Source: an uncultured Nitrososphaerota archaeon (GTDB taxonomy: Archaea > Asgardarchaeota > Njordarchaeia > Njordarchaeales > Panguiarchaeaceae). Taken from it: 64,000 nucleotides of DNA. Position numbers and translations under genes: made by a program. Shown here piece after piece: positions 274-61,719 of this stretch (the stretch's first letter is position 1; each line of letters opens with the position of its first letter). Below the pieces are notes generated by a model. The model was not told where the DNA came from, made no database searches, and was given only the letters and a program-made list of their open reading frames with translations. The stretch is taken from NCBI GenBank assembly GCA_964636085.1, contig CAZWPQ010000001.1, positions 69,744 through 133,743 of the forward strand. The letters are read 5' to 3'.

Positions 274-363
274 TGCCCCGGGCGGGATTTGAACCCGCGA
301 TCCCTGGCTTGAGAGGCCAGTTAGCACACGTGGTGATGCTTGGCCGGTCTACACCACCGGGGC
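274..363 (-). tRNA. tRNA, probably tRNA-Glu(CUC), ~90 nt with an intron at a non-canonical position
   Basis: The reverse complement reads GCCCCGG-TG-GTGTAGACCGGCCAAGCAT…CTGGC-CTCTCAA-GCCAG-GGATC-GCGGG-TTCAAAT-CCCGC-CCGGGGC-A. It has a perfect 7-bp acceptor stem, a GTTCAAATC T-arm, and an anticodon stem-loop with U33 and anticodon CUC. About 14 extra nt (ACCACGTGTGCTAA) lie between the D-arm and the anticodon stem. Confidence 0.6.
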
Positions 364-1689: not shown

Positions 1690-2024
1690 TACTTTCGCCT
1701 TATCTCTATTTTACTCTCACGACTAAATTGTCTCAAATATTGTTTTAAAATCTCTTTAAGTTGAGCATCATTTATGATTCCTCTTAGCCTTCCAGATAGA
1801 GCTAATGAGATAAGTTGGTTTTCAATAAATGCTCCAAATTCGGGTCTAGCTAACTTAATTCTGGCTAGTCTTTCGCGAGCCTCGCTAGTCAGTATTTGTC
1901 TAAGGATGGTCTCTCGTTGGATTTCCTCCTGTCTTTTGGCTTCACTTCTTTGTTTTTCTCTCAATAACCTTTCAAGCTCCCGCCGTCTTTTTGCCAATAG
2001 TAATTCCAGCTCTTCGTCAGACAT
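1689..2024 (-). CDS. PDCD5/TFAR19-like DNA-binding protein (archaeal MTH1615 family)
   Basis: 111 aa, highly charged coiled N-terminus and …LSGRLRGIINDAQLKEIL… C-terminus. It occupies the conserved archaeal position next to L39e, L31e and S19e. Confidence 0.55.
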   Translation of the reverse strand: MSDEELELLLAKRRRELERLLREKQRSEAKRQEEIQRETILRQILTSEARERLARIKLARPEFGAFIENQLISLALSGRLRGIINDAQLKEILKQYLRQFSRESKIEIRRK

Positions 2025-4937: not shown

Positions 4938-5032
4938 GCCGGGGTTGCCGAGCTAGGTACGGCGTCGGACTCGAGCAGATTGAGAAATCCGATGGCGTTT
5001 TCGCCTCGCGGGTTCAAATCCCGCCCCCGGCA
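4938..5032 (+). tRNA. class II tRNA with long variable arm, Ser(CGA) or Leu, with an anticodon-loop intron of about 11 nt
   Basis: GCCGGGG acceptor, GGTTCAAATCC T-arm, 14-nt variable arm and anticodon stem TCGGA/TCCGA. These flank an 18-nt loop, CTCGAGCAGATTGAGAAA, which implies an intron. The spliced loop CUCGAGA would give anticodon CGA. Genomic CCA follows at 5033-5035. Confidence 0.65.
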
Positions 5033-7087: not shown

Positions 7088-8419
7088 ATGAACGTACGCC
7101 AAAAGAAAACGAAGATTGATTATTCGAAACTCATTGACATATTAAACATTGATATTAATGCACTTAGGACAGCACCAAAAAAACCAACTATGCACATATC
7201 TAGTGCGATCATCGGTACTGCGGGCCATGTGGATCATGGTAAAAGTACTGTTACAGAAGCCCTTACGGGAAAATTCCCAGCCACGCATAGTGAAGAAATA
7301 CTCCGGGGAATAACTATATTCTTGGGGTATTCTCACCTAGATATTTTTACTTGTGTTTCAGGAGAGGAACTAAGCTGTCTAATATCCAACTCTACCAAAA
7401 AATGCCCAAGCAGAACATCAATGCATCACATGCGTTGTTATTCTATACTCGACCACCCTGGACACGAAATTTTGATCTCTACAATGCTCTCTGGTGCTTC
7501 CCTTATAGATTACGGCCTTGTTGTAATAGCAGCTAATGAACCATGTCCAATGCCCCAGACTAGAGAGCACGTTGCTGCCCTTGAAGTCATGGGCATAGAT
7601 AGAATTATATGTGTGCAAAATAAAATAGAACTCGTTGGCCAAGAAAAACTACTAAAACATTATCAACAGATTATCGACTTCTTTGAGAACGAAACGAGAT
7701 TCGGTACACCACCAATAATCCCAGTAAGTGCTGCCCTAAAAATAAATATAGAGCTAATATTGGCCGCTATCCTCCAGTATTTCCCACCCAAAACACCTAA
7801 TCTTGGAGGCCCAGCCTTGATGTATATAGCCCGCTCTTTCGACCCAAATAGACCAGGAACCCCCATAAAGAAAATTATTGGAGGCGTTATCGGTGGCGCG
7901 CTTAAGAGCGGCGAATTAAAAGTAGGGGATGAAATAGAGATAAGACCTGGTGTTATTGCCGAGGACGGAGAAATCATGCCTTTGTTCTCAGAAGTAGTAA
8001 GTATACGCTCTGATGCTGGACAGTCCCTTAAAAAAGCCCAGCCACATATGCTAATTGGAGTAGCCACAACACTCGACCCTGGGCTGGCAAAATCAGATGG
8101 GCTTGTAGGAAATATCGCGGGGAAATCTAAGGATCTGCCGCCTGTGACTGATAAGATAATTGTCAAGAATATAAATATGTTCGAAAAAATAATTGGCACA
8201 AGAGTTGAAAGGAAAAATTATCCGCTCAGAAAAGGAGAGGAGATATTGATAAACGCTGGCACATCCACCGTCGTTGGAGAAATCGACTTCATTCAGGATG
8301 ACGAGGCCGAAATTATATTGAGTAGACCCATATGCCTGCCTAAGGAGGAGAGAGTGGCAATACTTAGGGAAATTGACCGTGAATATAGGCTGGTTGGTTA
8401 CGGCAGACTGGACTATTAA
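7088..8419 (+). CDS. eif2g: translation initiation factor 2 gamma subunit (aIF2-gamma)
   Basis: GHVDHGKST (G1), DHPGH (G3), NKIE (G4), then beta-barrel domains II and III. The zinc-knuckle region after G1 retains only scattered Cys residues. Confidence 0.75.
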   Translation: MNVRQKKTKIDYSKLIDILNIDINALRTAPKKPTMHISSAIIGTAGHVDHGKSTVTEALTGKFPATHSEEILRGITIFLGYSHLDIFTCVSGEELSCLISNSTKKCPSRTSMHHMRCYSILDHPGHEILISTMLSGASLIDYGLVVIAANEPCPMPQTREHVAALEVMGIDRIICVQNKIELVGQEKLLKHYQQIIDFFENETRFGTPPIIPVSAALKINIELILAAILQYFPPKTPNLGGPALMYIARSFDPNRPGTPIKKIIGGVIGGALKSGELKVGDEIEIRPGVIAEDGEIMPLFSEVVSIRSDAGQSLKKAQPHMLIGVATTLDPGLAKSDGLVGNIAGKSKDLPPVTDKIIVKNINMFEKIIGTRVERKNYPLRKGEEILINAGTSTVVGEIDFIQDDEAEIILSRPICLPKEERVAILREIDREYRLVGYGRLDY

Positions 8420-43770: not shown

Positions 43771-43912
43771 TTCTCTATTTCTCGGGACAAAATAGCAGAT
43801 GACAAATCACATCCGCTACCCTACCAATCACAGATTATAAAGAATTTTAAAATTAGCCACAAGACTAGGGCCTATACCAACCTAGAATGCAAATTTTTAC
43901 TTGTGTTTTGGT

Positions 43913-44027
43913 GGGCCGGGGCGGACTCGAACCGCCGACCTTACGGTATCTAACCTTTAACCACACACAAGCCACGCATACCTTCAGCCGTACGCTCTCC
44001 CTCTGAGCTACCGGCCCGGCTTGAAGT
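43913..44027 (-). tRNA. tRNA-Phe(GAA) with 34-nt canonical (37/38) intron
   Basis: The reverse complement is GGGCCGG-TA-GCTCAGAGGGAGAGC-G-TACGG-CTGAAG-[GTATGCGTGGCTTGTGTGTGGTTAAAGGTTAGAT]-A-CCGTA-AGGTC-GGCGGTTCGAGTCCGCC-CCGGCCC-A. Confidence 0.75.
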
Positions 44028-44151
44028 TGAACACCATATTGATAATAATCACATGTACACTTTTATAAATTTTTCTTTTTAAGGGCCCCCTAATTTTTGA
44101 GGTATAGAGCTAATTTGTTCGATCTTTCCATATCTTTGCACCATTCCCTTT

Positions 44152-45315
44152 TTATGATTGATGACAAATGTTTGTTATCGTTTCTGCTAGCTTATCTATG
44201 CCTATCGTTGCTTTTGCTGAGCATAGTATTATTTTTGGTTCTTCTTTAAAGTACTCACCTATTATCTTGCGGATCTTACTTATTTTAGGTTCTTGTGGCT
44301 CCTTTAGCGCATCTATCTTATTTGCAGCTATTATCTTTACTCTTTCTATTGCGACATTTCTCTTTAGGATTTTTGCGGTTGCCCTTATCTTCAACTCTAA
44401 TAGACGTGGGTTATCCGCTATGTCTATCACCCATACCAACATATCTGCCTCCATAATATCCTCTAGGTTTAGTCTGAATGATGATATTATTTTCGGATCA
44501 AGTCCCGATACGAATCCTATTGTATCTACCATTAATATTTTTTCTGCGCCCTTTAACCTCGAGTATTTTGGGGATAGCGTCGTAAATGGTAGTGACGATA
44601 CGGGCTTTTGCTCCCCTGTTAATGCATTGAACAGACTGGTTTTCCCAGCATTATAATATCCAACAAACGTCACTATCTTAAACCCTAAACTCTTCCTTTT
44701 GTTTATCTCCATTATCTTTTTGTTTAATAGTTTCTCTATTTCCTCTCGAAGTTTTTTTCTTCTTTTCCTTAGCCATGCGACCTTTGGTACCCAGCCATAT
44801 TCTCCTCCTGCTCTAAAGAAGGGCTTATCGGAAGGACCATGTATTAATTTTTCCCTCAATTTAAAATATGGAATTAGCTTCTCGAGATACGCCATCTCTA
44901 TCTGCAATTTTGCTAGCCTATCACCCGCATTCCTCTGAAAAATTTCTAGGACCAATTCATACCTATCAATTACTCTAAGCCCCGTGTATCGTTCAAGGTT
45001 GAACTTCTGGATACTCTTAAGGGTATTCCAAATTATTAGTGTATCCGCCGCATTTTCCTCCGCCCGTATCTTAATCTCACTAACTTTTCCCTTTCCAAAT
45101 AGGGTTGCGGATATGGGCCTAGGTTTTATCTGAATAACCTCATCTACAATCCTATACCCAGCAGCACTTGCCAACTCTTTTAGCTCTTCTAATCTTACCT
45201 TCCACCCCACAAACTTTGGGGTTCTCAACATACCTATTATGGCATTATTATGCACCATTACCACCACAAAAGTAACCAAAACATTATTATAGTCCATCAC
45301 CATAGATAGAAACAC
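44152..45315 (-). CDS. hflX: GTPase HflX
   Basis: HflX N-terminal domain plus G domain with GYYNAGKTSLFNALTG (G1), DTIGF (G3) and NKID (G4). Confidence 0.7.
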   Translation of the reverse strand: MFLSMVMDYNNVLVTFVVVMVHNNAIIGMLRTPKFVGWKVRLEELKELASAAGYRIVDEVIQIKPRPISATLFGKGKVSEIKIRAEENAADTLIIWNTLKSIQKFNLERYTGLRVIDRYELVLEIFQRNAGDRLAKLQIEMAYLEKLIPYFKLREKLIHGPSDKPFFRAGGEYGWVPKVAWLRKRRKKLREEIEKLLNKKIMEINKRKSLGFKIVTFVGYYNAGKTSLFNALTGEQKPVSSLPFTTLSPKYSRLKGAEKILMVDTIGFVSGLDPKIISSFRLNLEDIMEADMLVWVIDIADNPRLLELKIRATAKILKRNVAIERVKIIAANKIDALKEPQEPKISKIRKIIGEYFKEEPKIILCSAKATIGIDKLAETITNICHQS

Positions 45316-45457
45316 CGATTAGAAAAAGCTATAAAATACCGCACAAAATGATATCCATAATCCATAAACTGCATAATGACTCAACAATAATAGAGCTTAC
45401 GCAGAATTGTCTATGGGAACCACAGAGAAAACATCCCTTTTGAAGTATAGAGAATGG

Positions 45458-45582
45458 AGGCGGGGGCGGGATTTGAACCCGCGACACGGGGATTTTTGAG
45501 CCACTATCAAGTATACACGTACTACTATAGGTGCCTGCAATCCCCCGCGTTGGCCAGACTATAGCCGCTACGCCACCCCGCC
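45458..45582 (-). tRNA. tRNA-Cys(GCA), 125 nt, with a 41-nt anticodon-loop intron and a probable second short intron in the D-loop
   Basis: The reverse complement is GGCGGGG-TG-GCGT-AGCGGCTATAGTCTGGCCA-ACGC-G-GGGGA-TTGCAG-[GCACC…TCAAAA]-A-TCCCC-GTGTC-GCGGGTTCAAATCCCGC-CCCCGCC-T. The D-loop is 19 nt. Removing 9 nt (GGCTATAGT) would restore the canonical AGCCTGGCCA. Confidence 0.65.
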
Positions 45583-45696
45583 CTGCGGTTCTATGAGGGT
45601 CCTATCTATAATTAGAAGATTTTGTCTCTTTAAAAATTTTACTTTGAGTGAAGTGTTTGATTATAGAATCGACAGATAATTCAGTAATCTTGTTTT

Positions 45697-46371
45697 TCAT
45701 AATAATAGCGATTCGCACGTACATATGATTCTACATAGAACATATGATGTTGTTAAGGGTTTGTCGCTTATGCTTATCATGTCGTCAATAATTTCTTCTA
45801 CATCATCCGAGAAATAGCCTGATGGAAAGGCCCCAACCACGAAAGCTATCCTTTTGTACTGTTTTAGTTTTACCCTTAGGTAATCCTCGAGTTTTTCCCG
45901 TCTTCCTCTTCTTGATAGACCAATAACATATTTTACGTTATTCTTTTCTAGGACTTCCCTCAGGTTAGAGCATTTTGCAATTAATTTCTTACCGCTCGCA
46001 AATATGGCCCCCTCCACTAATAGTTTCTCCATCAATCCTAGGAATCTAAAGTAGTGTCTTGGGAGCCTAGTATCTGGGTGGATGGAATAGACATTTCCTC
46101 TCTTCGTATGAACAACAATATCACTTATTATTCCTCTCGCGCACAGGCTTGAATCCAGTATTAGAAGAAGGGCCCTATGGAGTATATCGACTCTGCCCCT
46201 GTCTCTTAGTTCTTCATCATTTTTTATGGCCGAAAAAATCAACGTCTGGTCTAGCATTAATTCCCAAGGTTTCCTACCCCTTACCCTGCACCATTTTTTA
46301 ACAGATGGATGTTTCCAGAGTCTTCTAGGTATTAGTTCTAGATGCGCATCTGCCAATATAAACACTAGCAT
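45697..46371 (-). CDS. nep1: ribosomal RNA small-subunit methyltransferase Nep1 (Emg1)
   Basis: MLVFILADAHLELIP… and …VDILHRALLLILDSSL…IHPDTRLPRHYFRFLGLMEKLL match the Nep1/SPOUT signatures. Confidence 0.7.
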   Translation of the reverse strand: MLVFILADAHLELIPRRLWKHPSVKKWCRVRGRKPWELMLDQTLIFSAIKNDEELRDRGRVDILHRALLLILDSSLCARGIISDIVVHTKRGNVYSIHPDTRLPRHYFRFLGLMEKLLVEGAIFASGKKLIAKCSNLREVLEKNNVKYVIGLSRRGRREKLEDYLRVKLKQYKRIAFVVGAFPSGYFSDDVEEIIDDMISISDKPLTTSYVLCRIICTCESLLL

Positions 46372-61409: not shown

Positions 61410-61497
61410 TGGGCCCGGCGGGATTTGAACCCGCGACTTGCAGCTTTCTTCTCTCCATTAGAAGGCTGCCGCGCTATCCTAGCTACGCCACGGGCCC
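61410..61497 (-). tRNA. tRNA-Arg(UCU) with 13-nt canonical intron
   Basis: The reverse complement is GGGCCCG-TG-GCGT-AGCTAGGATA-GCGC-G-GCAGC-CTTCTA-[ATGGAGAGAAGAA]-A-GCTGC-AAGTC-GCGGGTTCAAATCCCGC-CGGGCCC-A. Confidence 0.75.
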
Positions 61498-61543
61498 TGG
61501 AGGAGAGACTAATTTTATATTTATATATGAGGGGATATTCTTA

Positions 61544-61627
61544 TAGGCCCGGCCGGATTCGAACCGGCGTCAGGGGATCTCCCCCAGCACCAGAGTCCCC
61601 CATGCTTGACCTCTACACCACGGGCCT
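61544..61627 (-). tRNA. tRNA-Gln(CUG) with ~11-nt canonical intron
   Basis: AGGCCCG-TG-GTGTAGAGGTCAAGCAT-G-GGGGA-CTCTGG-[TGCTGGGGGAG]-A-TCCCC-TGAC-GCCGGTTCGAATCCGGC-CGGGCCT-A. Confidence 0.7.
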
Positions 61628-61635
61628 ATTCTTGG

Positions 61636-61719
61636 TGCGCCGGGCGGGACTCGAACCCGCGTCACCAGCTTGGAAGGCTTATGCCTGTGTTGGCATCCTT
61701 CCTCTAGACTACCGGCGCT
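61636..61719 (-). tRNA. tRNA-Gly(UCC) with a 12-nt intron inside the anticodon stem (position 29/30)
   Basis: GCGCCGG-TA-GTCTAGAGGAAGGAT-G-CCA-[ACACAGGCATAA]-GC-CTTCCAA-GCTGG-TGAC-GCGGGTTCGAGTCCCGC-CCGGCGC-A. A canonical CCAGC/GCTGG stem forms only after removing the insert. Confidence 0.6.

Follow-up and report, generated by a model that had tools for sequence, protein, structure and literature searches.

The window, a 64,000-nucleotide stretch of archaeal DNA with about 39% G+C, carries nine tRNA genes. One of them, on the minus strand, is a tRNA-Cys(GCA) gene of 125 nt that is interrupted in two places, and it is apparently the only visible tRNA-Cys gene of its source, an uncultured archaeon from hot springs. 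Gene positions are numbered throughout from window position 45582, which is gene position 1. The principal features are:

45582..45458, minus strand: tRNA-Cys(GCA) gene, 125 nt from G1 to discriminator U73, delimited by hand parse
45603..45614, minus strand: candidate TATA-like A/T-rich element TAATTATAGATA, recognised by eye
45551..45569, minus strand: 19-nt D-loop AGCGGCUAUAGUCUGGCCA, gene positions 14–32
45536..45538, minus strand: anticodon GCA, gene positions 45–47
45494..45534, minus strand: canonical 41-nt intron at 37/38, gene positions 49–89, delimited by its bulge-helix-bulge (BHB) motif and by homologues
45458..45493, minus strand: 3' exon from A38 to U73 (3' strand of the anticodon stem, variable loop, T-arm, 3' strand of the acceptor stem)
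45455..45457, minus strand: encoded 3' CCA

The acceptor stem (GGCGGGG/CCCCGCC) is followed by U8 and G9, the D-stem (GCGU/ACGC) by G26, and the anticodon stem (GGGGA/UCCCC) by a variable loop (GUGUC) and a T-arm (GCGGG-UUCAAAU-CCCGC). These stems have 7, 4, 5 and 5 bp (acceptor, D, anticodon and T, respectively), all of the pairs are Watson–Crick, and the T-loop is canonical. The anticodon loop is encoded as UUGCAG, 41 nt and A; removal of the 41 nt leaves UUGCAGA, with U33, the anticodon GCA and a purine at 37. These features and U73 recur in all eight tRNA-Cys orthologues. A preliminary description of this DNA had reported a gene of 125 nt here and a 41-nt insert at 37/38 whose removal restores a GCA loop, and both are present in the sequence, with every stem paired. 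With its centre some 25 nt before G1, the A/T-rich element TAATTATAGATA is a candidate archaeal promoter.

The D-loop as encoded (19 nt) lies outside the normal range of about 7–12 nt. According to the preliminary description, it becomes canonical only after excision of about 9 nt, a point on which the hand parse and ARAGORN agree. ARAGORN makes no call on the intact locus and still finds no tRNA when the 41-nt insert alone is removed. When about 9 nt of the D-loop are removed as well, it calls tRNA-Cys(GCA), and any excision of about 9 nt suffices. The Rfam tRNA model, at E ≤ 10, likewise misses the whole tRNA and matches the T-arm alone. Standard tRNA finders thus overlook this gene, and genomes of the clade could be scored, wrongly, as lacking tRNA-Cys.

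The tRNA-Cys region is base-for-base the same in the window, in JGI 3300022170 (L001) and in ENA ERZ27247980 (L002). Tandem D-loop-like halves of the kind seen here could in principle come from mis-assembly, and no other support for a sequencing or assembly artefact was found. Since identical sequence was recovered in two independent assemblies, produced by different pipelines and held in different archives (JGI and ENA/Logan), an artefact is ruled out as an extremely improbable source of the insert.

Orthologous tRNA-Cys genes were gathered by synteny around Nep1 and HflX. The gene lies directly upstream of HflX in the window, as it does in L105, L099, L014 and L117, and because of this synteny the genes of the relatives are regarded as orthologues and not as second copies. 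They compare as follows:

L105: 37/38 intron of 42 nt, homologous to that of the window; no other insert; D-loop AGCACGGUUUA
L106: 37/38 intron of 39 nt; no other insert; normal D-loop
L117: 37/38 intron of 14 nt; no other insert; normal D-loop
L114: 37/38 intron of 39 nt; a further insert of 12 nt at 22/23; D-loop AGCCGGCUA
L099/L121, L123 and L014: no 37/38 intron; no other insert; normal D-loop

A further gene, in L113, is truncated at the end of its contig and has the 37/38 intron. Judged by the intron, L105 is the closest relative sampled. Most orthologues encode the CCA, and L105 has UCA in its place.

The 41-nt intron lies one nucleotide 3' of the anticodon. Its central helix (UUGC/UCAA) consists of 3 bp and a C35×U mismatch, which makes the BHB a relaxed one; its bulges read AG|G and AA|A, with the anticodon stem as outer helix. 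The mismatch is common to the window, L105 and L106; in L114 and, by hand parse, in L117, all four pairs of the helix form. That the tRNA-Cys(GCA) gene contains a real intron at 37/38, as had been proposed, is solidly supported by the homologous 42-nt intron at the same site in L105. Because orthologous genes of the relatives share an intron at this site, sequence comparison indicates that it is ancestral in the clade. It would be excised through its slightly relaxed BHB motif.

The D-loop insert has a different distribution. Orthologue D-loops measure 9–12 nt, the D-loop of the window is about 9 nt longer than any of them, and the 9-nt insert is absent from all orthologous tRNA-Cys genes sampled. 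A search of the protein database for a closer relative carrying it found that HflX identity falls from 100% directly to 70–77%. The D-stem is the most variable stem across the orthologues and is always compensated, with the pair U13-A22 unique to the window. Intact stems throughout, together with this compensated, lineage-specific pair, argue for continued selection on the gene along its own branch.

The same arm is interrupted in L114, whose tRNA-Cys gene (1778–1902, plus strand) has the 12-nt intron AGCCAGAGCUAA at 22/23. The central helix of that intron uses D-loop GGCU, its outer helix is 1 bp, and its ΔΔG is +11.9 kcal/mol. So weak a BHB suggests a very permissive endonuclease in the clade.

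Two scans were made for further tRNA-Cys genes. An exact 27-nt T-arm/acceptor scan of metagenomes returned only the locus itself and intronless relatives, with no second gene from the same sample. A scan of genome collections (T-loop, 3' acceptor strand and U73) did not match the species of the window; its pattern was too general, returning mostly bacterial tRNAs, and its only archaeal matches were L014, L038 and L047. The gene in L099 was considered as a second tRNA-Cys gene of the same genome and rejected, because it belongs to a different organism, in which it is the syntenic orthologue (the best segment of HflX reaches 74% identity).

The host lineage can be placed by its proteins. The closest named homologues of its eIF2-gamma (7088–8419, plus strand) belong to Candidatus Njordarchaeota/Njordarchaeia (73%, 62% and 58%) and to a metagenome-assembled genome labelled Korarchaeota (69%). 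NCBI labels of the relatives vary among Korarchaeota, Crenarchaeota and Thermoproteota, and the HflX of one relative is labelled Crenarchaeota/Thermoproteota. On these sequence comparisons, the lineage is Njordarchaeia-like (Asgard-affiliated) and not one of the classic multi-intron Thermoproteales. The Njordarchaeia are hyperthermophilic and now stand within the Asgard archaea, although this placement is debated (PMC12411855).

Seven tRNA genes out of nine in the window are interrupted by introns, two of them at non-canonical sites, and a single script using the cut rule set out below recovered every expected one. Besides those of tRNA-Cys, they are:

tRNA-Phe: 37/38, 34 nt
tRNA-Arg(UCU): 37/38, 13 nt
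tRNA-Gln(CUG): 37/38, 11 nt
class II tRNA, 4938–5032, plus strand: 37/38, 11 nt
tRNA-Glu(CUC), 274–363, minus strand: 26/27 (non-canonical), 14 nt
tRNA-Gly(UCC): 29/30 (non-canonical), 12 nt

The Glu and Gly introns have four Watson–Crick central pairs and outer helices of 5–6 bp. The Glu BHB is strict: its central helix is AGCA/UGCU, and GGCCA of the D-loop pairs with UGGCC of the anticodon stem to give an outer helix of 5 bp. Since both introns have such well-paired BHBs, the host clearly processes introns at non-canonical sites, in line with the preliminary description. These introns fit a relaxed-specificity endonuclease in the host. Asgard and TACK archaea have been reported to carry a broad-specificity (alpha-beta)2 endonuclease with an L1 loop (PMC5829648), and in some Asgard genomes 92–95% of tRNA genes have introns, often several per gene (PMC11291895). 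A screen for EndA among ten small open reading frames of the window found none.

Several of these genes are also awkward for automatic annotation. ARAGORN labels the gene at 274–363 (minus strand), which reads as tRNA-Glu(CUC), as tRNA-Ala(TGC). The genes for Gly(UCC), Gln(CUG) and Arg(UCU) form a tandem trio of interrupted tRNAs at 61410–61718 (minus strand), where ARAGORN labels two 'tRNA-???' and misses Arg. The class II tRNA at 4938–5032 (plus strand) has a long variable arm, and BHB-guided removal of its intron leaves the loop CUCGAGA with anticodon CGA (Ser); its discriminator A73 and the ARAGORN call Leu(GAG) stand against the Ser anticodon.

The identity of the nucleotides that could be cut from the D-loop was approached through a rule derived from the 13-nt intron of tRNA-Arg(UCU) and checked on six introns in the window: a 4-bp central helix has a cut 2 nt downstream of each of its two strands. 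The rule agrees with the endonuclease geometry given in a review (PMC4090602). All pairs of cuts in the D-arm of tRNA-Cys were enumerated and scored by it, each pair being written here as p and q, the gene positions after which the 5' and 3' cuts fall. The features that bear on the choice are:

45558..45566, minus strand: GGCUAUAGU, gene positions 17–25, site 16/17, the candidate intron of the preliminary description
45551..45559, minus strand: GUCUGGCCA, gene positions 24–32, site 21/22, a shifted candidate mini-intron
45562..45565, minus strand: GCUA, gene positions 18–21, 5' strand of the putative central helix for GUCUGGCCA, with its partner UGGC, gene positions 27–30, at 45553..45556

Excision of GUCUGGCCA, which is shifted by 7 nt from GGCUAUAGU, requires cuts after gene positions 23 and 32 (p23/q32). 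The central helix consists of three Watson–Crick pairs and one G·U (G18-C30, C19-G29, U20·G28 and A21-U27) and is also present in the minimum-free-energy (MFE) fold. A 3' bulge of 3 nt (C31 A32 | A33) places the 3' site between this helix and a 3-bp outer helix, GCG/CGC (G17-C34, C16-G35 and G15-C36). The central helix is capped by a hairpin loop of 5 nt, in which the 5' cut comes after the second nucleotide, and there is no inner helix. Excision leaves the canonical 10-nt D-loop AGCGGCUAUA, with A14, G18G19 and A21. In the enumeration, only p23/q32 joins four central pairs and an outer helix no shorter than 3 bp to a fully canonical D-arm.

Other registers were rejected. The excision p13/q23 loses A14, p22/q33 loses A22 of the D-stem, and the frames of the UAG repeat (p12–p15) have poor central helices. 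Similarity of the D-loop to those of the orthologues did not separate the frames, as both candidate products are equally plausible. A long-range BHB-like structure in which the CUAUAG palindromes of the D-loop insert and the anticodon intron pair with each other (p30/q51) has a 7-bp outer and a 4-bp central helix, the top score of the enumeration and an analogue in L106. It was nevertheless rejected as a chance pairing (P about 0.13–0.15 against shuffled introns), and its cut would also fall within an exon.

The energetic penalty of each motif was taken as the cost of enforcing it and refolding, relative to the MFE:

Arg 37/38 intron: +2.0 kcal/mol
Glu 26/27 intron: +3.7 kcal/mol
Gly 29/30 intron: +3.9 kcal/mol
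Gln 37/38 intron: +6.5 kcal/mol
Cys 37/38 intron, same gene: +6.8 kcal/mol
Cys D-loop, shifted frame GUCUGGCCA: +6.6 kcal/mol
Cys D-loop, frame GGCUAUAGU: +12.3 kcal/mol

The penalty of the shifted frame resembles those of the accepted introns of the window (+2 to +6.8 kcal/mol). In a null model, random 9-mers placed in the D-loop gave an equally good valid motif in 3–6% of trials, partly because the conserved D-loop AGC supplies two of the three outer-helix pairs for free. The 11–13-nt introns of the window have no inner helix or at most one pair of it, and their loops are of 7–9 nt. The architecture of the 11–14-nt introns of the window is also that of the GUCUGGCCA motif, which is one size step smaller, and the 5-nt loop at its 5' site is tighter than that of any control intron. 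At 9 nt, GUCUGGCCA falls below the shortest intron of the window (11 nt), and a literature search found no tRNA intron of less than 11 nt; introns of 11 bp are known from nuclear tRNA genes of Cyanidioschyzon merolae (PMC3728597).

Our tentatively preferred reading, possible but somewhat short of probable, is that the nine nucleotides of the D-loop are a spliced mini-intron in the shifted register GUCUGGCCA or its neighbour. The host would be a Njordarchaeia-like hyperthermophile whose syntenic tRNA-Cys(GCA) gene is interrupted twice. Its splicing endonuclease would cut GUCUGGCCA from the precursor and an RNA ligase would join the exons, after which the CGC strand would re-pair with G10-G12 into a normal D-stem. 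The insert is observed in its sequence, its reproducibility, its uniqueness to one lineage, its geometry and its energetics, and we infer cleavage and ligation at the GUCUGGCCA boundaries from a structural model. In favour of this reading stand the reproducible insert, the tRNA call that ARAGORN makes once the nine nucleotides are gone, the fit to the cut rule, the penalty close to those of accepted introns, the 12-nt intron in the corresponding arm of L114, the synteny and intact stems of the gene, and the endonuclease type and multi-intron tRNAs reported for Asgard archaea. Against it count the absence of the insert from all relatives, the 3–6% rate in the null model, the greater stability of an extended D-arm, the unprecedented shortness, the tight loop at the 5' site, the different frame of the inserted DNA, and the screen that returned no EndA.

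A competing fold bears directly on this reading. The preliminary description had named, as evidence that would overturn the intron, an alternative that pairs the insert as an extended D-stem, and such a fold exists and is the most stable local one, the MFE at 37, 70 and 85 °C. It consists of the D-stem, a 3×1 internal loop, a 5-bp helix (GGCUA/UGGCC) and a 5-nt loop, and at −41.4 kcal/mol, against −35.5 kcal/mol for the BHB conformer, it is favoured by about 6 kcal/mol. The two conformers share the central helix and differ in the pairing of CGC, with G10-G12 in the extended arm and with G15-G17 in the BHB. Because the helix is shared, the extended D-arm neither proves nor refutes splicing.

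The stability of this fold is what commends the idea that the nine nucleotides are retained, giving a mature tRNA-Cys with an extended D-arm, yet we consider such retention distinctly unlikely. In tRNAs, one GG dinucleotide of the D-loop must contact the T-loop (G18 with psi55 and G19 with C56). Both GG dinucleotides are sequestered in the extended arm, and a tRNA that lost its elbow contacts would be at risk at high temperature. A D-loop of 19 nt would also lie far beyond the 9–12 nt of all orthologues, and ARAGORN is blind to a tRNA of this form.

Excision of exactly GGCUAUAGU (gene positions 17–25, site 16/17), which would restore the D-loop AGCCUGGCCA, is very unlikely. This frame resembles the start of the 37/38 intron and is probably the inserted DNA; its product is accepted by ARAGORN, and AGCCUGGCCA is at least as similar to the orthologue D-loops as the alternative product. 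Its motif, however, is poor: a weak central helix with three of four pairs (a C·A mismatch, G·U, U-A and A-U), an outer helix of one G·U, and a penalty of +12.3 kcal/mol, the worst among the introns examined. In the stable fold, moreover, a BHB would need the bulge beside the 5' site to be on the opposite side of the helix. The check suggested in the preliminary description, to fold both candidate intron regions and look for BHB or relaxed BHB motifs, gave a relaxed motif at 37/38 and no usable BHB for GGCUAUAGU.

The gene might instead have been disabled recently by a 9-nt insertion, a partial duplicate of the 5' end of its own intron, leaving a young pseudogene while another tRNA-Cys does the work. 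The insert is confined to the lineage of the window and resembles a local duplication of gene positions 48–59, neither ARAGORN nor Rfam recognises the gene, support from the BHB is modest, and the visible genome amounts to 64 kb. Against this stand the syntenic orthologue of tRNA-Cys in every relative sampled, the intact stems, U33, T-loop, U73 and CCA, the compensated D-stem pair, the same sequence in three assemblies, and the metagenome scan, which found no second gene with such a T-arm and acceptor in the sample. Archaeal genomes also usually have a single tRNA-Cys gene. We consider a disabled gene unlikely.

The likely source of the insert lies within the gene itself. The CTATAGT element that the preliminary description had noticed in both inserts does occur in each, as CUAUAGU at gene positions 19–25 and 53–59, and the probability of sharing this 7-mer by chance is about 0.006–0.007. 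More broadly, GGCUAUAGU can be aligned with the 5' end of the 37/38 intron, G|GCACCUAUAGU, at nine of nine positions with one 3-nt gap (GG-CAC-CUAUAGU). This match covers gene positions 48–59, including the exon base G37, with a chance probability of about 0.002–0.004. Other frames of the 19-nt D-loop have no match to the 37/38 intron, and the homologous stretch of the L105 intron lacks CUAUAG. Because it is this frame that resembles the 5' end of the intron, the inserted DNA is probably GGCUAUAGU, arising by partial duplication at the DNA level.

The inserted frame GGCUAUAGU would then differ from the BHB-excisable frame GUCUGGCCA, and splicing would discard old D-loop bases. Pursued further, this would suggest the birth of an intron. 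Nine nucleotides copied from the 5' end of the gene's 37/38 intron, exon base G37 among them, would have entered the D-loop, and the gene would have survived since the copy pairs with the old D-loop in a minimal hBH motif. The register of splicing would differ from that of insertion, so that seven ancestral D-loop bases (CUGGCCA) and two inserted ones would be discarded and seven inserted ones would become exon. Gain of the intron would in this way have altered the sequence of the D-loop, and the smallest intron handled by the archaeal splicing endonuclease and ligase would now be one of 9 nt. This whole sequence of events is a rather improbable conjecture. If the insert is spliced, its likeness to the gene's own intron would be a concrete, testable case of the origin of a new tRNA intron.

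Intron gain by transposition or duplication was reportedly described in Thermoproteales by Fujishima et al. in 2010. The present case is similar in that a newly gained intron would resemble a pre-existing one. It differs in that the copying stayed within one gene and took in no more than 9 nt of a 5' end of about 12 nt; the copy extends into the exon by the base G37, and the 3' half of the intron's BHB is missing from it. The copy being partial in these ways, duplication at the DNA level is favoured over transposition of a whole intron.

The nearest parallels to the putative mini-intron are found in Crenarchaeota, and especially Thermoproteales, where multi-intron tRNA genes contain introns with non-canonical BHB, hBH and HBh' motifs (PMC4090602, PMC8450103). 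Those introns are also of the protein-spliced type, occupy sites beyond 37/38 that include the D-arm (20/21, 22/23 and 25/26), often occur beside a canonical intron, and have their cuts 2 nt downstream of a 4-bp helix, with relaxed motifs tolerated by (alpha-beta)2 enzymes. In contrast, the D-arm candidate described here has 9 nt, below the documented minimum of 11 nt, a 5-nt loop holds its 5' site and an inner helix is missing, its site (21/22) is absent from the list in PMC4090602, and its host is Njordarchaeia-like.

Among Asgard archaea, the closest comparison is with the Atabeyarchaeia and Freyarchaeia (PMC11291895). They share with the present host its Asgard affiliation and the interruption of most tRNA genes (seven of nine in the window), and many of their introns are non-canonical, with several per gene. 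However, they are mesophilic soil lineages whose introns measure at least 13 nt among the table rows listed, and no 9-nt D-loop intron is reported for them. D-loop introns processed through BHB-like motifs, with multiple introns per gene and a shortest length of 11 bp, are also known in C. merolae (PMC3728597), although the host is there a eukaryote, the 11-bp introns lie in the anticodon loop and the evolutionary origin is separate.

No description of tRNA introns in Njordarchaeia was found in the literature searched. If spliced, the insert would plausibly be a size-extreme case of a known intron class, in a lineage where that class is undescribed, and the shortest protein-spliced tRNA intron on record in that literature. 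It would also provide a natural test of the smallest loop accepted by the archaeal splicing endonuclease and the RtcB ligase. Intron-rich, non-canonically interrupted tRNA genes would then extend to the Njordarchaeia, a hyperthermophilic group whose position near the Asgard/eukaryote stem is debated. If instead the gene is broken or the insert is retained, it would be a curiosity of one lineage.

The surroundings of the gene also differ among relatives. In L112 (ENA ERZ584659), the Nep1 protein is reported as 99% identical, and the DNA of the contig is 86% identical to the window; the two diverge completely just before the end of Nep1, and at that place L112 lacks a tRNA-Cys gene, which could mean either that the contig is chimeric or that the strain is rearranged. 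In L117 and L121, the gene order is L30, an open reading frame, tRNA-Cys, HflX, Mut7-C and DUF72. In the window, Mut7-C and DUF72 adjoin L30 (25677–28324, versus 43912–46371 for the other block), and some 18 kb separate them from tRNA-Cys and HflX, which are flanked by Nep1 and tRNA-Phe. Judged from gene order, this difference is a rearrangement with tRNA genes at its junctions.
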